DNA from: Candidatus Multivoradales bacterium
GTDB taxonomy: Bacteria > Acidobacteriota > Thermoanaerobaculia > Multivoradales > JAHEKO01
Length of the DNA: 64,000 nucleotides
Direction of reading: 5' to 3'
NCBI GenBank assembly: GCA_965212505.1
Contig: OZ243123.1
Coordinates: forward strand, 4,624,313 to 4,688,312
A model generated the notes under the pieces. That model saw only the letters and a list, made by a program, of their open reading frames with translations. It made no database searches and was not told the origin of the DNA. Of the stretch, positions 4,726 to 58,627 are shown one piece after another; positions within the stretch are counted from its first letter, which is position 1, and each line of letters starts with the position of its first letter. The position numbers and the translations under genes were made by a program.

Positions 4726-5214
4726 ATGTCTCTCGACCTAGACCAGATCCGCCAGACGATCACTGAGTGGCTACTCGCCGAGGGTTGGCAGACGGCCGAG
4801 GGAACCGGCGAGGGGGCAGCTTGGGCACTTCGCGGTCAGGATCCCGGAGGGAAGGTTGTGATCTTCGCTCAGGAGAGTGCGTCACCACACCGTCTGCTGC
4901 TCCACGCGAGCGTTCGACTCGACCCCGCCCATGGCGAGAAGCTCCTGGCCCTCGACGAGAAGCGGCAGGAGGAGTTCTGCTGGCAGATTCGCATGAAGCT
5001 CCTCGACATGCGGGTGGACTTCCAGGGTGTTGCGATTCCCCTGGAACAGGTCAACCTGCGGATGCGGCTCTATGCAGAAGACCTGACTCGGTCTCGCTTC
5101 TTCGACACTCTCGGGTGTCTGCAGAACGCCATGCTCTTCCTGATCTGGACCGTCCGGCGCACGCTCGACGAGCCCGCGCTCGAGCGCGACGACGAAAATC
5201 TGCGCGTCAACTAG
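4726..5214 (+). CDS. Hypothetical protein
   Basis: Non-repetitive protein-like ORF, same strand as neighbours. The overlapping 4767..5357 frame is Arg-rich and was rejected. Confidence 0.4.
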   Translation: MSLDLDQIRQTITEWLLAEGWQTAEGTGEGAAWALRGQDPGGKVVIFAQESASPHRLLLHASVRLDPAHGEKLLALDEKRQEEFCWQIRMKLLDMRVDFQGVAIPLEQVNLRMRLYAEDLTRSRFFDTLGCLQNAMLFLIWTVRRTLDEPALERDDENLRVN

Positions 5215-5923
5215 AGGCGCTCGGCAGCGAAGACAGTTCCAGCCGAAGGCTCTCGAGAGCGGCGAGTGGGTCGGCAGACCGTGTCAGGGGCCGACCGATC
5301 ACCAGAAGGTCCGCACCGGAATCGAGCGCCTGCCGAGGCGTAGCGGTTCGCCTCTGATCGTCCGCCGCCGAGCCGCCGGGGCGGATCCCTGGGGTCACGA
5401 GATCAAACGACTCGGGCGAGAGGGCCCGCAGAGACGCGACCTCGCGCGGAGAACAGACTGCGCCTCGACAGCCGTGACGCTCGGCCAGCGATGCCCATCG
5501 CTCGACGCGCTCGGCCGCTTCCCCCGGAAGATCCAGCGCTTCCAACTGGGTCCTGTCGAGGTGCGTGAGCAGCGTGACTCCGAGAATCTTGAGGCGATCT
5601 CCAGCGGCCTCGGCCGCCGCCTCGATCATCGCCGGACCGCCTCCAACGTGCGCCGTCAGATAGTCGGCTCCAAGCTCGCGGGCCATCCGCACGGCGCCGG
5701 CCACGGTGTTGGGAATGTCGTGCAGCTTCAGGTCGAGAAACAGCCCTCGTGCACAGCGACGCGCAACCTCGACTCCGTCAGGGCCCCAGCGTGTGAACGC
5801 CTCCAGCCCGACCTTCAGAACGCCGACTCTCGGGCCGAACATTTCGCACCACCGCTCGAAGGTCGGCCAATCCGCGGTGTCGAGAGCAACGGCGACCTGG
5901 CGCAGGGGATCATCTCTTGTCAT
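5207..5923 (-). CDS. pyrF: Orotidine 5'-phosphate decarboxylase
   Basis: Motif DLKLHDIPNT and the overall OMP-decarboxylase TIM-barrel pattern. Start moved to the internal ATG (MTRDDPL), which overlaps the pyrD stop by 4 nt. Confidence 0.85.
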   Translation of the reverse strand: MTRDDPLRQVAVALDTADWPTFERWCEMFGPRVGVLKVGLEAFTRWGPDGVEVARRCARGLFLDLKLHDIPNTVAGAVRMARELGADYLTAHVGGGPAMIEAAAEAAGDRLKILGVTLLTHLDRTQLEALDLPGEAAERVERWASLAERHGCRGAVCSPREVASLRALSPESFDLVTPGIRPGGSAADDQRRTATPRQALDSGADLLVIGRPLTRSADPLAALESLRLELSSLPSASS

Positions 5924-7041
5924 TGCTGTTTCCTCGCCATGTCCGCACCGACTGCCTCTTCGAGGGTCTCGAAGCCATCGGCGTCGAGACGTTGTACCAG
6001 TCGCCGGAGGCAGCTGCAAACCAGGCGTGGACCTCTGTAGATCATGGCTGTGTAGATCTGGACCAGAGAGGCGCCGGCTCGAACCCGGCGGTAAACCTCG
6101 TCGCCCGAATCGACCCCGCCCACGCTGATGAGTGTCGTGTGGCCGAAGAACTCCGACGCGAGCGCTTGGAGCATCTTGTAGCTGCGGGCACGGAGCACCG
6201 CTCCGCTCAAGCCGCCCTTTCTGGCAGCTCCCGGCAGGAGGTCGTAGTCCGTCGTCGTGTTAGTTACGATCACGCCAGCGGCGCCGGCCTCGATCGCGCC
6301 CTGGACGAGCGCCAACGCTTCGGCCACCTCGAGGTCCGGAGACAGCTTCACGAGCACCGGCTCGGCGCCCAGGTCGAGACCAAGGCGCACCAGTCCCGCA
6401 ATTCGCTCGGGCGTCTGCAGGTCACGCAGACCAGGGGTGTTTGGCGAAGAGATGTTGATCACGAAGTAGTCCGCGGAGCCCTGGAATCGCCGGAACAGCT
6501 GCTCGTAGTCCGATTCGGCGTTCTCGAGCTTTGTGATGGCGTTCTTGCCCACGTTCACCCCGAGCGGGACGCGGTAGGGCCGCCCCGCGACCACCCGCCG
6601 ATGGATCGAGCCCATGCCGTCGTTGTTGAAACCGAGCGCGTTCTGCAGACTCTCTTTCTCTGGATGGCGAAAGATCCGTGGCTTCGGGTTTCCCGGCTGG
6701 GCGAGCGGCGTGACCGTACCCACCTCGACGAAGCCAAAGCCCAGGCCCTCGAAGCCGTGGATTGCCCGGGCATTCTTGTCGAAGCCCGCCGCCAAGCCGA
6801 CGGGGTTCGGGAACGTTCGGCCGAAGAGGCGCTGCTCGAGGCGCGCGCCCTCGGGGGTGCGATAGGCCGCCCGAAGGAGACCGCGCCCCGGCCCCAGCGA
6901 CGAGACGGCGCGCAGGGCGGTCATCGCCAACCCGTGAGCGCGCTCGGGTTCGAGGCGGAGAAGGAGCCTGTGCGTCAGGCCGGTTCGATAGGGCTTCGTG
7001 GGCTGCAACGTTCTCTCTGCTACGATCCGTCGGGCCTTCAT
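5920..7041 (-). CDS. pyrD: Dihydroorotate dehydrogenase (quinone), class 2
   Basis: N-terminal LEPERAH membrane-association helix, FPNPVGLAAGFDKN, GFGFVEVGTVTP, and the NISSPNTPGLR active-site loop. Confidence 0.9.
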   Translation of the reverse strand: MKARRIVAERTLQPTKPYRTGLTHRLLLRLEPERAHGLAMTALRAVSSLGPGRGLLRAAYRTPEGARLEQRLFGRTFPNPVGLAAGFDKNARAIHGFEGLGFGFVEVGTVTPLAQPGNPKPRIFRHPEKESLQNALGFNNDGMGSIHRRVVAGRPYRVPLGVNVGKNAITKLENAESDYEQLFRRFQGSADYFVINISSPNTPGLRDLQTPERIAGLVRLGLDLGAEPVLVKLSPDLEVAEALALVQGAIEAGAAGVIVTNTTTDYDLLPGAARKGGLSGAVLRARSYKMLQALASEFFGHTTLISVGGVDSGDEVYRRVRAGASLVQIYTAMIYRGPRLVCSCLRRLVQRLDADGFETLEEAVGADMARKQQ

Positions 7042-7076
7042 TATGGTCCAGCGCGACCCGACCTTGCCTGCTCTCC

Positions 7077-8834
7077 ATGAGCGCTGAACCGACTCGAGCC
7101 CCGGCCCCTTCGGAGCACCGGCTCGACCAGCTGCTGAACGCGGTTCCTGGATTCCTGCTGGGCTCTCACCTGGCGGGGTTGATGTTCTTCCTGAACCCGA
7201 GTCTCGCCTTTGGCGCCTGGCCCTTCTTGCGCGGAACGCTCCTGTATGGCGGCCTACTCGGTGCGCTCACCGGTGTCGGGCTCACTCTGATCACTCGCCG
7301 GTCACAAGGCCTCGCGCGTCGCGTCTTCCCCTGGTCTCTGGCGACCGTCTTCGCTGTCGCCGCGACGACCTACTGGGTTCACGCCTCTTATTATTCCTTC
7401 TTCGTACCGCCGGGGATGAACGCTCGGCTCATCAAGGCGGCGGGTTGGCTGACCCTCTGCGGCCTTGCGACGTTCTATACCGCCCTGCTGCATTCGATAC
7501 AGGCCAGGCCGTACAGCCGTCGCACGCGCGCGTTTCTCGCGTTCCTGGCGCTACTTTCGATGGTTGTGCTCGTCGAGAGGCGAGAGGCGTTCAAACCCAC
7601 GGTCGCCGCCGCACTGCCCTCCACCGTGGAGCGCGAAATCCGCCCAACCCTCATTGTCGTAGGGATCGAGGGGGCGACACTCGACGCGATTCTTCCGCTG
7701 GCGGGGCAGGGGCAGCTCCCCTTCTTCTCAGAGCTTCTGGCAAGCGGTACGCACGGTCGACTCTCGACCCTGTCGCCGACCTACGAGGACGCCCTCTGGA
7801 CCTCGGTCGCGAGCGGAAAGTTCCCCTACAAACACGGAGTCTTGGGTGAGCAGATCTTTCCGGCGGGCGCCCTGAGCCCAGGCTCTCTCCTCCGGCTCGT
7901 GCCCGCCGGGTTCGGCGGACCGCTCTTGCAGACGGCCGGCTACGAAGCGAGCCCTCCAGACGCCCAGAGCAAGGAGTCGTTGGTGGCCTGGGAGATTCTC
8001 GGTCGGCTGGGCGTCGACACCGGGGTCGTGGGTTGGCCCGTTTGCTACCCATCTGGAGGCGAGGTCGACTTCGCCTTCTCGGAGCGCTACTTCGACGGCG
8101 ACTTCTTCGCGGCCAGTGCGCGACCGACCGAGCTCGTCGAGCGCGGCATCTTGTTTCGGGTCTCCACGGATGACATCGACCCTGGTGTCGTCGACCAGCT
8201 CGCATTTGCCGTGCCTCACGACCTGCTCCGAGTCTTGGCGGGGGATCTTTGGCGCGAGTCTCTCACCACGTTTCTCATGGATCAGAAGGGCGGCGTGAGG
8301 GCCTGGTTTCTGATGCTTCCTGGCCTCCGAGAGGTCTCAGCCCGCTACTTCGGAAGCTACTCCGCCGTTCATTTCGAGGGCGACCAGACGCCCCTTCACC
8401 ACCAGTCGGCACAGTTCGTCACGTCCTATTATCGACATCTCGACGCGTTCTTGGCGCAGCTCTGGAATCGCGCAACCGGGCCACGGATGTTGGCGATCGT
8501 CTCGCCCTTTGGCGCCGAGTCTCCTACCGGTGTTCGTCGGCTCATGGCGAACCTGTCGGGCAAGCCGATTCCGGGGCGTTTTAATGGAGCGCCGGACGGC
8601 GTGCTCTTTCTCGCCGGAGAGGGCATCCGCCAAGGTGTCTTCCTCGAGGACGCCCATGTGATCGACATCCTGCCAACCCTCCTGTACGGGCTCCGATTCC
8701 CGATCGCAAGAGACCTCGACGGCCGGGTCCTGGTGTCCGCATTCGAGTCGTCCTTCCTGGCACGCCACCCGCTGACCTTCGTCCCGTCCTACGAGACGCT
8801 AGCGGCGGAAGCGGCGCCCGGACAAGAGCGCTAG
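7077..8834 (+). CDS. Multi-TM membrane protein with C-terminal alkaline-phosphatase-superfamily (type I phosphodiesterase/nucleotide pyrophosphatase-like) domain
   Basis: About six predicted TM helices, then TLIVVGIEGATLDAILP (AlkP-type metal-ligand motif). Start set after the pyrD stop (ATG near 7077); the upstream part of ORF 6762 is antisense to pyrD. Confidence 0.7.
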   Translation: MSAEPTRAPAPSEHRLDQLLNAVPGFLLGSHLAGLMFFLNPSLAFGAWPFLRGTLLYGGLLGALTGVGLTLITRRSQGLARRVFPWSLATVFAVAATTYWVHASYYSFFVPPGMNARLIKAAGWLTLCGLATFYTALLHSIQARPYSRRTRAFLAFLALLSMVVLVERREAFKPTVAAALPSTVEREIRPTLIVVGIEGATLDAILPLAGQGQLPFFSELLASGTHGRLSTLSPTYEDALWTSVASGKFPYKHGVLGEQIFPAGALSPGSLLRLVPAGFGGPLLQTAGYEASPPDAQSKESLVAWEILGRLGVDTGVVGWPVCYPSGGEVDFAFSERYFDGDFFAASARPTELVERGILFRVSTDDIDPGVVDQLAFAVPHDLLRVLAGDLWRESLTTFLMDQKGGVRAWFLMLPGLREVSARYFGSYSAVHFEGDQTPLHHQSAQFVTSYYRHLDAFLAQLWNRATGPRMLAIVSPFGAESPTGVRRLMANLSGKPIPGRFNGAPDGVLFLAGEGIRQGVFLEDAHVIDILPTLLYGLRFPIARDLDGRVLVSAFESSFLARHPLTFVPSYETLAAEAAPGQER

Positions 8835-51810: not shown

Positions 51811-53025
51811 CTAGCGCCGGAGTTTCTCGATCAGGCCGAAAACCTCGTCGACCTGCTCCCAGCCGGTACGCATGAGGAACGTGTTGTTGCGCCCGTAGGA
51901 CTTGGCCCCGACGATGAAGAAGTTCGGCTCCGGGTTCACGAGCGTGTCCGCTCCGTGACTCTCCTGGGCGAGACAGTCTCCGCTGCTCGAGCCGAGGAGT
52001 GCTGCGGCAAGCTTCATCGGGCCGCTGGTGGCGTAGCACTCGTGGACTTGCAGCTGTCGGTAGAGGCTGTGATCGCCGACAAATCCTGTGAGCGAGACCA
52101 TGCGGTCTACATCGAGGGTCGTCCGCTCGCCGCTGCGATGGCGGAGTGTCACTTTGTAGCTGCCGTTGGTCGCGGAGATCGACTCGACCACCACGCCCAG
52201 CTCGGTCTTCACCCGGGAGCTTTCCTCGGCGATCTTTTGCGCACGACGAGTGAGACGGGCGCGCTCCGGCAGCGGATCGTCCGGGTCGACGTGCCAGCGA
52301 GGGCTCTCCGAGCGGAGCGCCCAGGTCACCTCGGTGCCCGGGAAGCGCTCGGCCAGCCAGGCCAGGTCGACGACTGCGGTCTGCGCTGAGTGCCCGGCGC
52401 CGACCAGGAGGATCTTTTTCCCCGCCCACCGGCTCTCGTCGCGCACGAGGTCTGGGATGTGGCGCTCGATCGCCGCGGCCGCCGCCTCTTCTCCAGGGGC
52501 TTCGATACCGCCGTCGCCGAGTGCGTTCGGGTGACCCCAAGAGCCGGTGCAGTCCAAGACGACGTCCGCGTGCTCGACCCTTTCGCGCCCATGCTCGTCC
52601 TCGACCAACAGGCGGAACGGCTGTGCGCGGCGCTCCTCGGAGCCGATCTCCTCGTGCTTGAGTAGCCCCTCGCGTCCCACTCGCTTGACCCGCGTACCGG
52701 TTCTCACGTGCGGGGCGACCTGCGGGAGCTCCGCGATCGGGGCGAAGACCGTCTCGACCAGTTCGCTACCGGTGGGACAGTCCGGGTCGTCCTCGGCTGG
52801 CAGTCCCGCTCCGGTCCCTGCCAGTGCGCGACGCATTCGAGGCGAAATGTCCAATCCCCACGGGGTGAAGAGACGCACGTGGCCCCAGCGACGAACGCTC
52901 GAACAGACCTCGGAGCCGGCTTCGTAAACAGTGAACGAGCAGTCGCTTTCTTGGGCTGCGAGGGCTGCTTCGAGTCCTACGGGGCCCGCGCCCAGAATGG
53001 CGATGTGCGGTGTTTCGGAGCTCAT
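51811..53025 (-). CDS. FAD/NAD(P)-binding oxidoreductase (flavin monooxygenase-like)
   Basis: N-terminal Rossmann IAILGAGPVGLEAALAA and a second GxGxxA (LVGAGHSAQTA). Confidence 0.7.
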   Translation of the reverse strand: MSSETPHIAILGAGPVGLEAALAAQESDCSFTVYEAGSEVCSSVRRWGHVRLFTPWGLDISPRMRRALAGTGAGLPAEDDPDCPTGSELVETVFAPIAELPQVAPHVRTGTRVKRVGREGLLKHEEIGSEERRAQPFRLLVEDEHGRERVEHADVVLDCTGSWGHPNALGDGGIEAPGEEAAAAAIERHIPDLVRDESRWAGKKILLVGAGHSAQTAVVDLAWLAERFPGTEVTWALRSESPRWHVDPDDPLPERARLTRRAQKIAEESSRVKTELGVVVESISATNGSYKVTLRHRSGERTTLDVDRMVSLTGFVGDHSLYRQLQVHECYATSGPMKLAAALLGSSSGDCLAQESHGADTLVNPEPNFFIVGAKSYGRNNTFLMRTGWEQVDEVFGLIEKLRR

Positions 53026-53028
53026 GGG

Positions 53029-54135
53029 TCAGTACCTTGAAGAAGCCCGCTCCTTGGCGGGGAGGATTTCCAAGCAGGTGGTCCACCATCCGGTGAGGAC
53101 GGTCTCGACGAACTCTTCCGGCAGCTCTTCGACTCGCATCTCTGCCGCGAGCGCGTCGTGATCGTAGGCGAGCGGAACCAGCTCGACCGCAAGCCCTTCC
53201 GATCTCTCTTCGAGCATGGCGTACCAGACGTGAGTGTTGCCATCGTTTGCCGGCCGGCCGATGACACCTACGTTGACGACGTCGCCGCCGGAGGGCAGTT
53301 TGCGGTGCCATGGCAGACCGGTGTGGGTACAAAGGAAGCCGTCCGCCTTCTCCTGGCCGAGAAGCACTTCGAGGAACGCTGTCGGTGTCGTGGAAAGAAA
53401 CAGGAACTCGTTGATCTGTCGGGGTGAGCCGTGGACCAGCAACAGTTCGCGATCGCCGACGCGCACACGCCGTCGCTCCGGCAGCTCCCCCATCCACTCC
53501 TTGAACTCGGGCGCGCAATTGCGGGCTGTGTAGTTGTACGAGAGCTCTGCGAAGTGGTTGTCGCGCGGATCCGTGTAGCCGCAGTTGCAGTCCTCGTGGC
53601 CGGTTGCCAGCGACTGCTCGTAGTTGCCCTGAAGGGTCGACACGCCCCCCTCGTCGAGCAGTGGTCGGACCCGGTTCGGATTGGGCCCGAAGCCGCCCAG
53701 ATCTCCGAGGCAGTAGATCGCCTCGGCCCCTCGCCGGGTCGCGTCGTCGAGGAGAGCGGTCAAGCCGTAGTGGTTGTTGTAGACGCCGCCAAAGACTGCG
53801 ATCCGCGAGTACGGCCCCTCTACCGGAGTCTCGTCGTCCGAAATCGCCAAGAAGCTGTCGACCTCTTCGGCGCGCCCTTCCGGCGAGAGCTCGCGACCGG
53901 CCTTCGCGGTCGCCTCTCGGAACTCACCCAGCGGCACCAACCTCTCCCCCCAGGTCGCAAGACCACGATGCACGGTCAGAGGCGACGAGTCGCGCCGCTT
54001 CTTGTCTCGATCGTCCTTTGGAGTTCTCGGGCTCATTCGGAGGAACCAAGAGAGGGGCTCGTCAAACAACTGGCCATCGACGCAAGTCCGACAGGAGGGT
54101 TTGTCAAGGGAGGGCTCTCCCTTGACCCCAATCAA
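53029..54135 (-). CDS. Metallophosphoesterase (calcineurin-like) family protein
   Basis: GDLGGFGPNP and GNYE/GH motifs typical of the calcineurin fold. Four-nt gap to the upstream oxidoreductase. Confidence 0.7.
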   Translation of the reverse strand: MIGVKGEPSLDKPSCRTCVDGQLFDEPLSWFLRMSPRTPKDDRDKKRRDSSPLTVHRGLATWGERLVPLGEFREATAKAGRELSPEGRAEEVDSFLAISDDETPVEGPYSRIAVFGGVYNNHYGLTALLDDATRRGAEAIYCLGDLGGFGPNPNRVRPLLDEGGVSTLQGNYEQSLATGHEDCNCGYTDPRDNHFAELSYNYTARNCAPEFKEWMGELPERRRVRVGDRELLLVHGSPRQINEFLFLSTTPTAFLEVLLGQEKADGFLCTHTGLPWHRKLPSGGDVVNVGVIGRPANDGNTHVWYAMLEERSEGLAVELVPLAYDHDALAAEMRVEELPEEFVETVLTGWWTTCLEILPAKERASSRY

Positions 54136-54153
54136 CTCTCTCCCTTGATTCGG

Positions 54154-54951
54154 TCACGTCTTGCAACTCACTCCGAACACATGGCACGTCCAGCAGGCCG
54201 GATGCCCCATCTCGAACGGCCCCAGCGTGTCGGCGATCGCCTCGCCCATCTTGCCGTCGGGCTCGTTGACCAGAATCGGGCAGACCCACACCCCTTGATC
54301 GGTGACCATTCGGCAGCCGCTGCATTGCAAGTGCGACCAGCCGTCGGATGGCGTGTCGCCCTCGCGCAACCGCTGCCAGCTCTCGTAGGCGCCGCCGCGT
54401 TCGGCCTCGGCGCCCATGCGGAAGACGGGTAGCATCTTGAGCCGCGGCTTCTCGATGCCCATCTCGCTCAGGAGCTCGAAGAAGCGCAGGCGACCCTCTC
54501 GAGAGGCGTTTTGATCGTGCACCTCGGTGACCGTGATCACGGGATTGATCCCCGCTCGGTAGAGGTTGGAGATCCCGCCGAGAATCCGCACGAACGTCCC
54601 TTCGCCTCGAATCGGGTCGTTCGTGGCGGCGTCGTAGCCGTCCATCGACACTCTGAAGTCGAGAGAGTAGTCGCTCGCCGTGGCGAGTTTCGCGAGTCGC
54701 TCGCAGCGCACCGGATCGAGAAGTAGACCGTTGGTGAGAACCGTCGCCGGGCCGTACTCGAGAGTCCTCGCGAGGATGGCCTCCATCTCGGAATTGAGGA
54801 ACGGCTCGCCGCCGGTGAAGTAGTACTCCTTCACCCCCAGGCGCGCGCCCTCTTCGAGATAGGGCACAACCTCTTCCAACGACAACCCATCGTGAGTGTG
54901 GTTGGTCGGCGAGCTCGAGACGAAGCAGTGCGTGCACGCGAGATTGCACAC
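54154..54951 (-). CDS. arsS: ArsS-like radical SAM protein (arsenosugar-biosynthesis type), Cys-rich C-terminus; true start probably upstream (frame open to ~55104 without ATG/GTG/TTG)
   Basis: CNLACTHCF radical SAM cluster motif, a GGEP SAM-binding motif, and a C-terminal Cys-rich tail (CSGCRMV...CP...HPACWTCHVFGVSC). Positioned immediately downstream of arsM. Confidence 0.7.
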   Translation of the reverse strand: MCNLACTHCFVSSSPTNHTHDGLSLEEVVPYLEEGARLGVKEYYFTGGEPFLNSEMEAILARTLEYGPATVLTNGLLLDPVRCERLAKLATASDYSLDFRVSMDGYDAATNDPIRGEGTFVRILGGISNLYRAGINPVITVTEVHDQNASREGRLRFFELLSEMGIEKPRLKMLPVFRMGAEAERGGAYESWQRLREGDTPSDGWSHLQCSGCRMVTDQGVWVCPILVNEPDGKMGEAIADTLGPFEMGHPACWTCHVFGVSCKT

Positions 54952-55034
54952 CGTACCGGCGATCTGAAACCAGAGGGTGTCCAGCGAGCGGAGCTCGACC
55001 TTCGGTGCAGCCCGCGCGACCTCGATCGGCTGAC

Positions 55035-56189
55035 TCAGCAGCAGTCTCCCGGTTCGCAGCAGGCCTTGGCCTCGGTGGTTGCGTCGTATTCGAGCCCTTT
55101 CGTTTCACGAGGGTGCCGAAGGACCGTGCGCGAGCAGTCGAACGGCTCGGCGGCCTCGAGCGGAACCTCCTCGAGCGGATCGACGAAGTCGAAGTGCTCG
55201 CGATAGGGCTCGCGCTTGTAGATGTTGTAGGTCTTGTCGCAGACAGCGTAGCGGTGGCCACGCTCCATGCGGTGATCGTCGTCGTCGAGGACCTCTTTGA
55301 ACGGACCGCGATAGACCACCGCCTGGTTGCGCTCGACGCAGGGCCCTTCTTTGCCCTTGAACGCCTCGACGGTGAGCGAACGGAACTCGATGCCCTCGAC
55401 GGTGCGCCACGGCTCTTCCTGCCGTTCGAGCACTCGCACGCCGTAGAAGCCGACCTCTTCGAACGCTTTCAGAAATCCGTCTTCGGTGAAGGCGCCAGAG
55501 ATACAGCCACTCCAGAGATCCGCGTCCGTCTGCATGGAGAGCGGTACATCTTCGTCGCTCACAATGTCCGAGATCACCGCGCGACCGCCGTTGTTCAGCA
55601 CTCGGTAGATCTCTTCGAAGAGCTCGCGCTTGCGCGAGTTGTCGACCAGGTTCAGCACGCAGTTCGACACCACCACGTCGACCGAGTCGTCGGCGACCAA
55701 CGGCCGGCTCCGGCGAAGCTCTTCGCTCAACCCTTCGATCTCGAGCAGGCCCTCGACGTCGGTAACCGGCGTCGAGCCGAGGCGCTCCTCGAGTAGGTCG
55801 AGGTCTAGGGCGAGGTCCTGAATCCGCCCTCGGCGAAATTCGACGTTCGAGAAGCCGATGCGCTCGGCGACCACCGGTACGTTGCGACGTGCGACATCGA
55901 GCATGTCGGGCGTCATGTCGACGCCGATCACCTTGCCCTGCGCTCCCACCACCTGGGCTGCGATGAAGCAGATCTTCCCTGTTCCGCTCCCCAGGTCGAG
56001 CACGGTCTCGCCTTCGTTCAGGAAGCGGCTCGGATCACCGCAACCGTAGTCGCGCTCGAGAACCTCGCTCGGGATCACCTCCAAGTAGCGAGGGTCGTAG
56101 TCGACCGGGCAGCAGAGCTCCGGCACCTGGGTCTGGGCGCCGGCGCTGTAGCGCTCTTTGACGGCCCGCTCTGTATTGGCAACTGTCAT
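55035..56189 (-). CDS. arsM: Arsenite S-adenosylmethionine methyltransferase ArsM with Cys-rich C-terminal tail
   Basis: VKERYSAGAQ..CCPVDYD (N-terminal Cys pair), GCGDP, VLDLGSGTG, GVDMTPDMLDVAR, VVVSNCVLNL, and WSGCISGA (third As-binding Cys) match the characterized ArsM pattern. C-terminus ends KACCEPGDCC. Confidence 0.85.
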   Translation of the reverse strand: MTVANTERAVKERYSAGAQTQVPELCCPVDYDPRYLEVIPSEVLERDYGCGDPSRFLNEGETVLDLGSGTGKICFIAAQVVGAQGKVIGVDMTPDMLDVARRNVPVVAERIGFSNVEFRRGRIQDLALDLDLLEERLGSTPVTDVEGLLEIEGLSEELRRSRPLVADDSVDVVVSNCVLNLVDNSRKRELFEEIYRVLNNGGRAVISDIVSDEDVPLSMQTDADLWSGCISGAFTEDGFLKAFEEVGFYGVRVLERQEEPWRTVEGIEFRSLTVEAFKGKEGPCVERNQAVVYRGPFKEVLDDDDHRMERGHRYAVCDKTYNIYKREPYREHFDFVDPLEEVPLEAAEPFDCSRTVLRHPRETKGLEYDATTEAKACCEPGDCC

Positions 56190-56306
56190 CTAGATTCCAC
56201 TCCAGTCTCTGGCGGAGCCCTCTCCGCCGTTCAAGAAGTCGTCTCGCATCGATGCGCGAGGGGGCGACCGGCTTGGCGGTCGCGCGTCGTTGGGTCTCGG
56301 TCGGCT

Positions 56307-57038
56307 CTAGGCCGGCGGACCGCGAAGCGATCGAGTCGGTCGATAGCCAGTTGCGGTGACGCCCACGAGAGCGGGTGCCAGGGGGGTACAGAGGGCGAGG
56401 AGCGCGGCGCGCAACTCTCGCAAGAGCCCCTGCCAGCGCGGTGCCTGTTCTCGAGCGATCCAGGCGAGAAGATCTCGAGCGCGATCGAGATCACGCAATG
56501 GCTCGAGAAGGTAGACCTCGAGGCCGCGCTCTTCGAGCGCCCTGCGAAGGGTGGCGAGCGTAGCGTGGCAACACCAGTGAACGCTCGCTAGCTCAGCATC
56601 GAGGCAGATGTTGGTTGCGAGCAGGTAGAAGCCGCCGTCGGGAGACGGTCCGAGTACGACGCGCCGGCGTGAAGACCCGAGCCGGCCGAGCGCTTCCCGC
56701 ACGTGGCGAGACTCAAGCCCCGGCACGTCGGAGCCCACCGCCACGACCGGTCCGTCCGCTTCCAGGCGTGCTGCCGAAAGAGCGTTTCGGAATCTCTCGC
56801 CGAACGAGGCGCCCGTCTGGCGAATCATGTGAGCCCCGGGCTCGGTCAGCTGCGGCTCGGTCGTAGCAACCTGAAGCCGGCAACCGGAAGTTCGCCCGGC
56901 GGTCAAAGCCGCGTCGAGGCTCTCCCGCAGAACGCTTCGTGTCAGCCCGTCGAATCGTCTCGGCAGGAGCCGCCGCTGCGCACACTCACTCGCGGGAGTT
57001 CGGGCAAAGACGAGCAGACTCGGCTGGTGGGCTGTCAT
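56307..57038 (-). CDS. DUF2064 (TIGR04282-type, glycosyltransferase-like nucleotidyltransferase fold) protein associated with arsenosugar clusters
   Basis: LLVFARTP N-terminus and DGGFYLLA motif typical of DUF2064. Located upstream of arsM on the same strand. Confidence 0.6.
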   Translation of the reverse strand: MTAHQPSLLVFARTPASECAQRRLLPRRFDGLTRSVLRESLDAALTAGRTSGCRLQVATTEPQLTEPGAHMIRQTGASFGERFRNALSAARLEADGPVVAVGSDVPGLESRHVREALGRLGSSRRRVVLGPSPDGGFYLLATNICLDAELASVHWCCHATLATLRRALEERGLEVYLLEPLRDLDRARDLLAWIAREQAPRWQGLLRELRAALLALCTPLAPALVGVTATGYRPTRSLRGPPA

Positions 57039-57128
57039 CTAGAAGGTGGGTACGAAGCGAGGGCGTTTGCGGATCGCTTCGGATGCGGCAGTCTATCTTG
57101 GCTCTCCGTTCGCTATGATCTCCCGGCT

Positions 57129-57548
57129 TTGGCCAGATACCTCGCGATCTCGCTGCCGCTCCTGGTACTCCTGATGGGCGGATTCACCTTCGTACTCGGC
57201 GCCGTCGGATTGAGCCCCTCTCTCGCCTCGTTGGAGCGAGCGGGTCTGGCGCGGCCCGAGGCGCTGCCGATCGGCCTCTCCGTTGCGGGTTGGCTGATCG
57301 AGACGCTCGCCCTGACGGCGCTCTTTCTCTTGATTCAAGATCGCACCGGCGCCTGGTGGATCGACGGCCTGGTCGCGGGCATGATCGGATGGGTCTTCCG
57401 CGGTCCGATCCTGGTGTTGACGATCGTTTCGACCAGTCGTCTCGGCGTCGACCCCTGGTGGCCGATGGCCCTGCGGCTCCTGCTGCTCTACTCGATCTGT
57501 GGCCTCGCCCTCGCGATGATCGCCCGATCGGTTGGGCTCGAGCGATGA
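57129..57548 (+). CDS. Small multi-TM membrane protein, hypothetical (TTG start; ATGA-coupled to the type III PKS)
   Basis: Four predicted TM helices. The stop overlaps the PKS start. No ATG in frame; TTG proposed. Confidence 0.4.
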   Translation: MARYLAISLPLLVLLMGGFTFVLGAVGLSPSLASLERAGLARPEALPIGLSVAGWLIETLALTALFLLIQDRTGAWWIDGLVAGMIGWVFRGPILVLTIVSTSRLGVDPWWPMALRLLLLYSICGLALAMIARSVGLER

Positions 57549-58627
57549 GCGGCGCACCACGAGTGGTCGCGGTCGGCAGTGCGTTTCCAGAGCACTACTA
57601 CGAGCAGGAAGAGCTCCTGGCGGCCTTCCGCCGCGTCTGGGCGCCGAAGATCTTCAACCTTGCACGACTCGAACGACTCCACCGTAACGTATTGGTCGGG
57701 AATCGCCATCTGGCACTGCCGCTCGAGAAGTACGAAGAGCTCGAGACGTGGGGCCAGGCGAACGACGCTTGGATCGAGGTGGCGCAGGACGTCGGCGCGC
57801 GCGCTGTCTCCGACGCCCTCGAGCGCGCCGGTCTGTCGGTCGAGGACCCTGCGGCGATCTTCTTCGTGACGGTCACCGGTGTCGCCACGCCGTCGATCGA
57901 TGCTCGGTTGATCAACCGACTCGGTCTCTCGTCGAGCATCAAGCGCAACCCGATCTTTGGTCTCGGCTGTGTGGCGGGAGCCGCCGGCATCGCCCGCGCG
58001 TCGGACTACGTGCGTGCCTTCCCCGATCAGGTCGCTGTACTGCTCTCGGTCGAGCTCTGCTCCTTGACCCTCCAGCAGAAGGACTTCTCGGTGGCCAACC
58101 TGATCTCCTCCGGACTCTTCGGAGACGGTGCGGCCGCAGCGGTTGTTGCCGGGGCCGAGTGCCCGTTGAACGACGCCCCTAGGGGGCCTCGAGTGGTCGC
58201 GACTCGCTCGATCTTCTACCCCGACTCCGAGCGGGTGATGGGCTGGGACATCTCGGAGAGCGGCTTCCAAGTTGTGCTCTCACCAGAGGTCCCTGAAGTC
58301 GTGCGACAGTTTCTTCGGCGCGACGTCGATGCGTTTCTCGGCGATCTCGACTTGGAGGTTGGCGACATCAACTCGTGGGTTGCCCACCCCGGCGGTCCGA
58401 AGGTCCTTCAGGCGATGGAAGAGTCGCTCGAGATCGAGGGCGGCGAGAAGGGGGCACTCGGCGTCACCTGGCGGAGCCTCAAAGAGGTCGGCAACCTCTC
58501 CTCCACCTCCGTGCTGCTAGTGCTCCAAGAGACGATGGCCGAGCACCGCCCCGAGCCTGGGAGCCTAGGAATGCTCCTCGCCCTCGGTCCGGGTTTCTGT
58601 TCGGAACTTGTGCTCCTCGAGTGGTAG
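57545..58627 (+). CDS. Type III polyketide synthase (chalcone/stilbene synthase superfamily)
   Basis: Catalytic Cys in GLGCVAGAAG, His in WVAHPGGPKVL, and Asn in GNLSSTSV. About 361 aa. Confidence 0.85.
   Translation: MSGAPRVVAVGSAFPEHYYEQEELLAAFRRVWAPKIFNLARLERLHRNVLVGNRHLALPLEKYEELETWGQANDAWIEVAQDVGARAVSDALERAGLSVEDPAAIFFVTVTGVATPSIDARLINRLGLSSSIKRNPIFGLGCVAGAAGIARASDYVRAFPDQVAVLLSVELCSLTLQQKDFSVANLISSGLFGDGAAAAVVAGAECPLNDAPRGPRVVATRSIFYPDSERVMGWDISESGFQVVLSPEVPEVVRQFLRRDVDAFLGDLDLEVGDINSWVAHPGGPKVLQAMEESLEIEGGEKGALGVTWRSLKEVGNLSSTSVLLVLQETMAEHRPEPGSLGMLLALGPGFCSELVLLEW

Follow-up and report, generated by a model that had tools for sequence, protein, structure and literature searches.

The window, that is the whole 64,000-nt stretch of DNA analysed here, contains a cluster of five genes encoding a DUF2064 protein, an ArsM-like methyltransferase, a radical SAM (rSAM) protein, a metallophosphoesterase and a flavoprotein, and this cluster adjoins a type III PKS. 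It is conserved, uncharacterised and widespread in Thermoanaerobaculia. All features of the arsM–rSAM region described below lie on the minus strand. The ArsM-like gene (55035–56189), identified from the ORF list and from matches to Pfam Methyltransf_31 and other families, encodes a SAM-dependent methyltransferase of 384 aa. The protein ends with ...TTEAKACCEPGDCC, followed by the TGA at 55037–55035, and the ArsM proteins of relatives share both this length and this tail. It scores below the curated cut-offs (346.5 against 500 for NF040538, 201.1 against 263 for PRK11873). Its translation contains the motifs CC..Y, YGCG, SNCVLNL and WSGCISGA, the cysteines of which may correspond to those of the As(III) site of ArsM.

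The rSAM gene follows. Delimited by the start used in the sister lineages, as located by DNA alignment with loci L001–L004, it spans 54154–55062 and comprises 302 codons, the first of which is CTG; its 3′ end is certain (stop 54154–54156) and its 5′ end is the one that we infer. The protein belongs to the rSAM superfamily, with a PF04055 score of 74.8 bits against a gathering threshold of 29.5 and a [4Fe-4S] motif CX3CX2C (CNLACTHC, 54925–54948). The original prediction had labelled it ArsS-like, a label for which we found no support: the score against TIGR04167 (ArsS) is 44.8 bits, the NCBIfam cut-off being 300, and the generic rSAM core alone aligns. The best NCBIfam match, to the Rv1681 family, is also below its cut-off (99.4 against 380), and a sequence search of solved structures with the rSAM protein returned generic rSAM-core matches only (BlsE, SkfB and viperin).

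Reading the rSAM frame codon by codon, we found an in-frame TGA at 55105–55107, inside the arsM coding sequence, then 51 sense codons without any ATG, GTG or TTG, then a GTG at 54949–54951, immediately followed by TGC AAT CTC GCG TGC ACG CAC TGC (C-N-L-A-C-T-H-C). This open frame, offset by −1 from that of arsM, covers the final 70 nt of the arsM gene. A lack of canonical starts over about 50 codons and an overlap of about 70 nt in another frame had both been predicted, and both are confirmed. The near-cognate codons of the stretch are CTG at 55062, 55059, 55044, 55041, 55038 and 54984, ATC at 55026 and 54963, and ATA at 55089; the five CTG counted earlier, together with ATC and ATA, fit only the portion that precedes the conserved block, as the whole stretch holds six CTG, two ATC and one ATA. 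Given that 5.3% of codons in the reading frames of the operon are canonical starts, a start-free run of 51 codons has an expected probability of 0.06. The absence of starts is not unusual by itself; it is meaningful because a conserved coding segment has its 5′ end there. Among the approximately 27 ORFs of the window supported by GC3, the rSAM gene is the only one that combines the lack of a start with a coding-like leader (GC3 0.84), and the GC3 scan revealed no further start-less gene in the 64 kb. A borderline ORF at 5920–7266 was considered as a second case and rejected, as it has a normal ATG start (translation MKARRIV...).

We examined where the homologues that bear the Fe-S motif begin. 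Their called N-termini lie 22 to 59 residues before the first cluster cysteine in 119/119 sequences, and none begins at MCNLAC. The segment between the arsM stop and the GTG (54952–55034, GC3 0.84) comprises a variable linker and, after it, the conserved block PKVELRSLDTLWFQIAGT, in which LDTLWFQ..GT is invariant in 24 sequences. Against six relatives, the dN/dS ratio of the 20 codons preceding GTG 54951 is 0.09–0.33 (median about 0.17), as compared with 0.08–0.22 for the next 100 codons of the gene body; purifying selection acts on the upstream codons just as it does on the body of the gene. The homologous N-termini and the upstream selection together indicate that GTG 54951, although it is the first canonical in-frame start, is not the start of the gene; it encodes instead the conserved valine that precedes the first cluster cysteine. 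A protein beginning with MCNLAC would lack PKVELRSLDTLWFQ, which is encoded upstream of this GTG, and with it the invariant LDTLWFQ..GT and the predicted β1 strand leading into the cluster loop (54958–54978). This strand is placed at residues 29–35 by an AF2 model whose confidence is low (pLDDT 60, with values below 40 in the C-terminal third). GTG 54951 is also devoid of a Shine–Dalgarno (SD) sequence (−2.7 kcal/mol). A genuine start at this codon is therefore very improbable, and the earlier view that the segment upstream of it is coding, and that a first cluster cysteine at residue 2 is implausible, is well founded.

The annotation of the source genome uses a GTG located even further inside the gene (54865–54867), yielding a 237-aa product (P0009, MPYLEEGA...) without the Fe-S motif. 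This public call is a truncation artefact of the missing canonical start, and its product would pass for one that is broken or has no function. The rSAM protein should instead be modelled with about 290–302 aa and a non-standard start codon.

The −1 offset of a frame that stays open across the last 70 nt of arsM raised the alternative of a −1 frameshift close to the arsM stop, either programmed or a sequencing artefact, producing an ArsM-rSAM fusion; indeed, in the relative L043 the two genes read as one ORF. Fusion is not borne out. Both frames are intact and colinear with those of relatives, which also excludes an indel error, and the arsM tail and stop are laid out as in these relatives. 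No slippery heptamer of the X XXY YYZ type occurs among the arsM-frame codons 55104–55035, and the local RNA fold is ordinary (MFE −55.5, with shuffled sequences averaging −54.4; z = −0.28). The relatives occupy all three phases, with spacers of 9–55 nt, showing that fusion is not a trait of the family. Homologue lengths are 286–322 aa, and the best 120 as a whole, all stand-alone proteins, span just 237–322 aa. The L043 fusion itself results from a 1-nt deletion in the arsM tail, downstream of which AGGAG-N6-ATG is intact. A frameshift is thus hardly credible here. Selenocysteine read-through of either TGA was likewise rejected, the frames downstream being non-coding overlaps.

The DNA alignment with L001–L004 revealed a GTG in the relatives where the window has CTG at 55060–55062, 25 nt before the arsM stop. 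In a neighbour-joining tree of ArsM and rSAM the window is sister to L001, L002 and L003, which share its gene phase and have no spacer. The GTG of these sister lineages is built from the third base of an arsM alanine codon and the TG of the next cysteine codon (GCG TGC). The G-to-C difference at 55062 converts the alanine codon from GCG to GCC and is therefore synonymous in arsM. L004 and the independent L112 have no canonical start other than the aligned GTG ahead of the conserved block. L001–L003 carry, in addition, a TTG at 21 codons from the cysteine, which could be their real start. At this alanine codon GCG is found as well in the outgroups L005, L166 and L167, in which it does not fall in the rSAM frame, so that the GTG may be inherited rather than selected. 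Moreover, the N-terminal peptide VLRTGRLLL of the relatives is the arsM tail read in another frame, and its conservation is thus uninformative on the rSAM start.

As a single substitution would restore the start of the relatives, we considered that the true base at 55062 might be G and the gene an ordinary one, with an error in the base call or consensus of its source, a single 5.12-Mb contig that is possibly long-read based. Yet this base is a synonymous third position of arsM, at which natural differences are common at the dS of 0.6–1.4 that separates the window from its relatives, while a consensus error at any one given base is very rare, and members of the family have C there more often than any other base. 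Such an error appears improbable.

Two CTG codons deserve consideration as the start. The first, CTG 55062, is preceded at 7 nt by an SD-like tetramer GAGG (55070–55073; duplex with the anti-SD, −5.9 kcal/mol), which is not statistically distinctive. We rejected the idea that the GAC-to-GAG change creating this GAGG is a compensation, since Glu/GAG is present there in the other-phase relatives L005 and L043. The second, CTG 55038 (55036–55038), overlaps the arsM stop as CTGA and is followed by a serine codon; GGGAG (55046–55050), encoded by the arsM codons for PGD, lies 7 nt upstream of it (−7.4 kcal/mol, an energy matched or beaten by 13% of background positions). A start at this codon would give an extension of 30 residues before the first cysteine, which is a mode of the family. 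The distance to arsM would be the CTGA overlap (55038–55035) with CTG 55038, and a 28-nt overlap with CTG 55062. We also rejected the argument for a homologous start at CTG 55038 drawn from MTEPIQ in P0003 and (L)SQPIE in the window: this resemblance may be due to chance, because the ATG of P0003 lies 55 nt after its arsM stop. An ATC at 55024–55026, 9 nt after the arsM stop and without an SD, is a third, weaker near-cognate candidate. SD hybridisation energies did not discriminate among the candidate codons, 13–24% of background positions scoring as well, and the genuine starts of the operon themselves have weak SDs.

Same-phase relatives start mostly at the arsM stop: TGATG is found in 7 loci, L016 has a TTG at −4 and L017 a GTG at +2. 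This arrangement fits translational coupling. We favour, with moderate confidence, the reading that the rSAM protein is translated from a near-cognate codon, CTG 55062 or CTG 55038, probably coupled to the translation of arsM. The rSAM start would then be located inside the arsM-like gene or at its very end. A silent change of GCG to GCC in arsM would have turned a GTG start like that of the sister lineages into CTG 55062–55060, and the enzyme would most likely still be made, at low efficiency. Initiation could take place at this CTG, with GAGG 7 nt upstream, or at one of the three CTGs beside the arsM stop, above all the CTG 55038 of the CTGA overlap with its GGGAG; in either case ribosomes fresh from arsM translation would help. 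Initiation itself, its codon and its coupling are what we infer; selected coding sequence upstream of every canonical start, and a CTG where orthologues have a canonical start, are two marks of a gene with a near-cognate start. Of the three explanations originally proposed, rare CTG or ATC initiation linked to arsM termination is therefore the best supported, CTG 55062 being the counterpart of the sister GTG, and the frameshift or fusion is not supported. Initiation at CTG is a known, ordinary phenomenon: in E. coli, CUG initiates at about 1–2% of the AUG level (bioRxiv 10.1101/063800), and termination-reinitiation coupling at gene overlaps has been described (PMC6728339).

Alternatively, the arsM-neutral G-to-C change may have removed the only usable start, leaving the rSAM gene silent or nearly so, as a very young pseudogene. 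A canonical start is indeed absent, and in E. coli near-cognate codons are only 0.02–3% as active as AUG (bioRxiv 10.1101/063800). The nearest relatives, at dS 0.6–1.4, are so distant that a recent inactivation would leave no trace, and a search of the protein database, GTDB genomes and JGI metagenomes for relatives above about 86% identity, with which the change from GTG to CTG could be dated, returned none. A canonical start is missing in 2 of about 164 loci, and this proportion of about 1% is as expected of a deleterious or transient state; the low frequency fits mutation or error as well as mechanism. Against a recent loss, the rSAM gene shows no decay: it has no frameshift and no stop, and it keeps 142/142 of the positions that are invariant in 23 homologues. 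The remainder of the five-gene cluster is intact too, and several near-cognate codons with SD-like motifs are found at sites where coupling could operate. Finally, L080, the second start-less locus, is an independent case with a strong SD: in place of the GTG of its sister L078 it carries a CTG, 5 nt after AAGGAG. Recent start loss is a possible, if rather unlikely, alternative.

Near-cognate initiation may also extend beyond this gene. Two independent members of the rSAM family, in the window and in L080 (AAGGAG-N5-CTG), carry an SD-like motif followed by CTG at the position of the sister's GTG. Regular use of CTG as a start codon in Thermoanaerobaculia-type Acidobacteriota is nevertheless doubtful. 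Were it true, through relaxed start discrimination or obligate CUGA reinitiation, standard gene callers would consistently cut short or overlook a whole class of genes in such genomes, and coupling at a weak codon would determine the ArsM:rSAM ratio. The locus illustrates how a synonymous change in one gene can abolish the start codon of the following gene that overlaps it; such a start-less state can persist within an otherwise intact operon.

One near-cognate start is the AUU of infC, encoding IF3, which is conserved and autoregulatory and at which low initiation depends on the discrimination exerted by IF3. The rSAM gene would share with infC a near-cognate start, and nothing suggests regulation in the window. 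Other counterparts are hda and yfjD of E. coli, which start with CTG (EcoGene 3.0, PMC3531124): there too, conserved coding sequence lies upstream of the first ATG, GTG or TTG, CTG occupies the expected start, and automatic annotation picks a downstream codon. Unlike in these two genes, the CTG of the window is a putative start, a lineage-specific replacement of GTG that lies inside the upstream gene. The pair also resembles coupled overlapping pairs of the ATGA or TGATG type (PMC6728339, PMC12548453), in that the genes are same-strand neighbours in one operon, that relatives use TGATG (7 loci) or starts a few nt from the arsM stop, and that an SD-like GGAG is encoded in the tail of the upstream gene. 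In contrast to such pairs, the stop codon is overlapped by CTG (CTGA) and not by ATG, GTG or TTG, the coupling is a presumed one, and the alternative start implies a 28-nt overlap, beyond the usual 1 or 4 nt.

An rSAM gene directly after an ArsM-type gene is also found in the ArsM/ArsS arsenosugar pair of Synechocystis and the ArsM/ArsL arsinothricin pair of Burkholderia gladioli (PMC8552651), and a further likeness is the adjacent DUF2064 protein, related to TIGR04282 ('arsenosugar biosynthesis glycosyltransferase'). The rSAM protein of the window, of about 300 aa with its motif at residues 39–46 (Cys39/43/46), is set apart by published architecture from BgArsL, which has 428 aa and its CX3CX2C at Cys194/198/201 (PMC8552651). 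Unlike either pair, the cluster of the window also holds the metallophosphoesterase and flavoprotein genes and adjoins the type III PKS. Its product is possibly an organoarsenical, and the cluster is of greater interest than the start-codon problem.

The radical SAM gene (rSAM), whose 3' end lies at 54154 on the minus strand, is directly preceded by the gene of an ArsM-like methyltransferase (arsM, 56189..55035, minus strand, 384 aa), which ends in ...TTEAKACCEPGDCC followed by TGA 55037-55035. Codon reading of the rSAM frame on the minus strand gave a TGA at 55107-55105, then 51 sense codons without ATG, GTG or TTG, up to GTG 54951-54949, with TGC AAT CTC GCG TGC ACG CAC TGC directly 3' of it. 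The open frame covers the final 70 nt of arsM and is in -1 relative to it. All this agrees with the original prediction, which named the right near-cognate codons but miscounted them: the stretch holds six CTG, two ATC and one ATA, not five, one and one. At this composition, about 6% of coding stretches should contain no canonical start over 51 codons, and the run is meaningful solely through its position. A GC3 scan covering the entire window gave rSAM as the sole likely gene with a coding-like start-less leader (GC3 0.84); a borderline ORF at 5920-7266, considered as a second case, has an ordinary ATG start.

Homologues were searched among 5.8 billion proteins, and the best 120 of thousands of matches were examined. 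They are 286-322 aa long, with a single exception of 237 aa. Of these, 119 carry the cluster motif; their called N-termini precede its first Cys by 22-59 residues, the modes being 35 and 30, and none starts one residue before this Cys, the MCNLAC position that had been judged implausible. An alignment of 24 sequences shows no variation at residues L27, D28, T29, L30, W31, F32, Q33, G36 and T37. Comparison of the window with six relatives gave dN/dS values of 0.09-0.33 (median about 0.17) for the 20 codons ahead of the Cys and of 0.08-0.22 for the following 100 codons, showing that the upstream codons are under selection. Radical SAM barrels have their first strand just ahead of the cluster loop, and an AlphaFold model, of low confidence given its mean pLDDT of 60, places a strand at T29-A35 (TLWFQIA) immediately ahead of this loop. 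N-terminus positions, invariant residues, upstream dN/dS and modelled strand all point upstream: GTG 54951 is excluded as the real start and the true 5' end of rSAM is upstream of it. The short protein, P0009 (237 aa), comes from a 5.12-Mb contig and matches the window at 100% identity; it is the call made for rSAM in the source genome itself. It starts at an internal GTG (54867-54865, minus strand; MPYLEEGA...), lacks the CX3CX2C Fe-S motif and is an annotation artefact.

The closest relatives by ArsM+rSAM are the loci L001 and L002/L003, to which the window is sister in an NJ tree; L004 has an identical junction layout. These four loci share five-gene synteny and phase, have no spacer, and their rSAM is called from a GTG 25 nt ahead of the arsM stop, so that the two genes overlap by 28 nt. 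On DNA alignment, CTG 55062-55060 of the window occupies the exact position of this GTG, and in the arsM frame the same site reads GCG in the relatives versus GCC in the window, both Ala. The loss of the canonical start is thereby traced to a substitution of CTG for GTG that leaves the ArsM sequence unchanged. The GTG is the sole canonical start ahead of the conserved block (LDTLWFQ..GT, just before the first cluster Cys) in L004 and in an unrelated short contig, L112, where it lies directly 3' of an in-frame TGA. Three caveats apply: the relatives' N-terminal peptide VLRTGRLLL is the -1 reading of the arsM tail (A)CCEPGDCC*, so that its conservation follows from that of the tail; the Ala codon GCG also occurs in outgroups L005, L166 and L167, out of frame for rSAM; and L001-L003 carry an additional TTG 21 codons ahead of the Cys. 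Compared with a natural synonymous difference, a base-call error at 55062 has a far lower prior probability, and the family most often carries C here.

The proposed frameshift or ArsM-rSAM fusion is not supported by the junction: arsM tail, arsM stop and rSAM frame are colinear with the relatives, which indicates that there is no indel. A slippery heptamer is absent, RNA folding shows nothing unusual (z = -0.28) and the family is not fused among the best 120 homologues. In one locus (L043, DASPJI010000286.1) arsM and rSAM form a single ORF because one nucleotide is missing from the arsM tail (TGCTG-GAGCC in place of TGCTGCGAGCC). An intact rSAM start, AGGAG-N6-ATG, persists behind the deletion, and this ORF suggests an error of assembly or a mutation rather than a designed fusion.

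The arsM-rSAM junction is a labile one: relatives have rSAM in each of the three phases with respect to arsM, and in L165-L168 it starts at an ATG behind a spacer of 9-55 nt. Relatives that share the window's phase start at the arsM stop or a few nt away: seven loci have TGATG, L106 and L107 an ATG at -7, L016 a TTG at -4 (the sole candidate there) and L017 a GTG at +2. A GGAG-like motif ahead of these starts corresponds to arsM tail codons for (E/G)PG(D/E). This start-at-stop layout is that described for translationally coupled gene pairs (PMC6728339; PMC12548453).

The best-supported reading, to which we give chances slightly better than even, is that rSAM would be initiated at a near-cognate codon, tied to arsM translation. 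At the arsM stop, where relatives in this phase start, the window reads CTG CTG CTG AGT. Further upstream, CTG 55062 (minus strand) is preceded by GAGG at a distance of 7 nt (-5.9 kcal/mol) and would give a 38-residue extension. CTG 55038 (minus strand), which overlaps the arsM TGA as CTGA, follows GGGAG at the same distance of 7 nt (-7.4 kcal/mol) and would yield (M)S... with 30 residues; MS is the most frequent N-terminal dipeptide in the family and 30 residues one of its two length modes. ATC 55026 (minus strand), without a Shine-Dalgarno-like motif, would give 26 residues. The Shine-Dalgarno energies are not distinctive, equal scores occurring at 13%-24% of operon positions, and the operon's genuine starts are weak. 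Of the three explanations originally offered, coupled CTG/ATC initiation is the best supported, a CTG being aligned to the relatives' GTG, and all three codons are candidates. In E. coli, CUG, AUA, AUC and AUU initiate at 1-2% of AUG, or 0.02-3% depending on the construct (bioRxiv 10.1101/063800), and hda and yfjD are two chromosomal genes with verified CTG starts (PMC3531124). On this reading the case is a further example of something already known, together with an annotation artefact, and not a new mechanism.

The main rival is a recent start loss that left rSAM silent. No frameshift or internal stop was found in the window's rSAM, which keeps all 142 positions invariant in 23 homologues (individual homologues break 0-7); this argues against long-standing inactivation. 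As the nearest relative is at dS 0.6-1.4, a very recent inactivation is compatible with an intact gene. The neighbouring genes are intact, and no rSAM paralogue was found within the window. Among about 164 related loci, a canonical start ahead of the conserved block is missing only in the window and in L080 (JBHENW010000200.1, a Thermoanaerobaculia MAG), an independent, distant lineage. L080 reads CAGGAAGGAGCTTCA CTG at the point where its sister L078 reads CAGGAAGGTGGGTCATCC GTG; a strong Shine-Dalgarno motif (AAGGAG) lies 5 nt ahead of this CTG, about 40 codons ahead of the Cys motif, and the conserved block reads YPFVPS.SLDTLW. Two further genes were examined in these loci: a canonical start is missing from 1 of 70 downstream flavoprotein genes (L083) and from none of 39 arsM genes; from these counts the start-less state has a frequency of about 1%. 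It is rare, yet occurs twice with CTG in the expected place. In L083 (about 5060-5100), an in-frame TGA is followed by five codons, GCC ACG TCC CGC CGG, and then by the Rossmann motif RRIVVIGAGP.

By its PF04055 match (74.8 bits), the rSAM protein is a radical SAM enzyme. Its earlier ArsS-like label is not upheld (TIGR04167, 44.8 against a cut-off of 300); its best NCBIfam match, the Rv1681 family, is far under cut-off (99 versus 380), the solved structures BlsE, SkfB and viperin match through the generic core only, and ArsL has a different architecture (PMC8552651). The methyltransferase is ArsM-like by its NF040538 score (346 versus 500) and its cysteine motifs (CC, YGCG, SNCV, GCISGA), though under the curated cut-offs. 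These genes belong to an operon (57038..51811, minus strand) encoding a DUF2064 protein related to TIGR04282 (94.6 versus 134), the methyltransferase, rSAM, a metallophosphoesterase and the flavoprotein (FAD/NAD(P) oxidoreductase). Divergent from it, on the plus strand (57290-58627), are a chalcone-synthase-like type III PKS and a small membrane protein, the whole region spanning 51811-58627. Synteny is kept in many Thermoanaerobaculia and other Acidobacteriota MAGs, and the cluster also occurs in some Longimicrobiales and Polyangiaceae MAGs. No cluster protein reaches the curated ArsS, ArsM or TIGR04282 cut-offs; the product is possibly an organoarsenical.

Other starts in the cluster also deserve mention. 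The DUF2064 (57038) and arsM (56189) starts on the minus strand, ttctagATGACAGCC and atctagATGACAGTT, have the common context tCTAG ATG ACAG, neither with a strong Shine-Dalgarno-like motif, which may be chance. The longest metallophosphoesterase ORF (53029-54135, minus strand) runs from TTG 54135 and encodes 368 aa, against 335 aa in relatives; the likely start is ATG 54036 (MSPRTPKDD...), leaving a 118-nt gap behind the rSAM stop, as in L001. For the type III PKS (57290-58627, plus strand), the longest ORF encodes 445 aa from a TTG, and the 359-aa length of relatives fits an internal ATG start (MSGAPRVVAVGSAF...).
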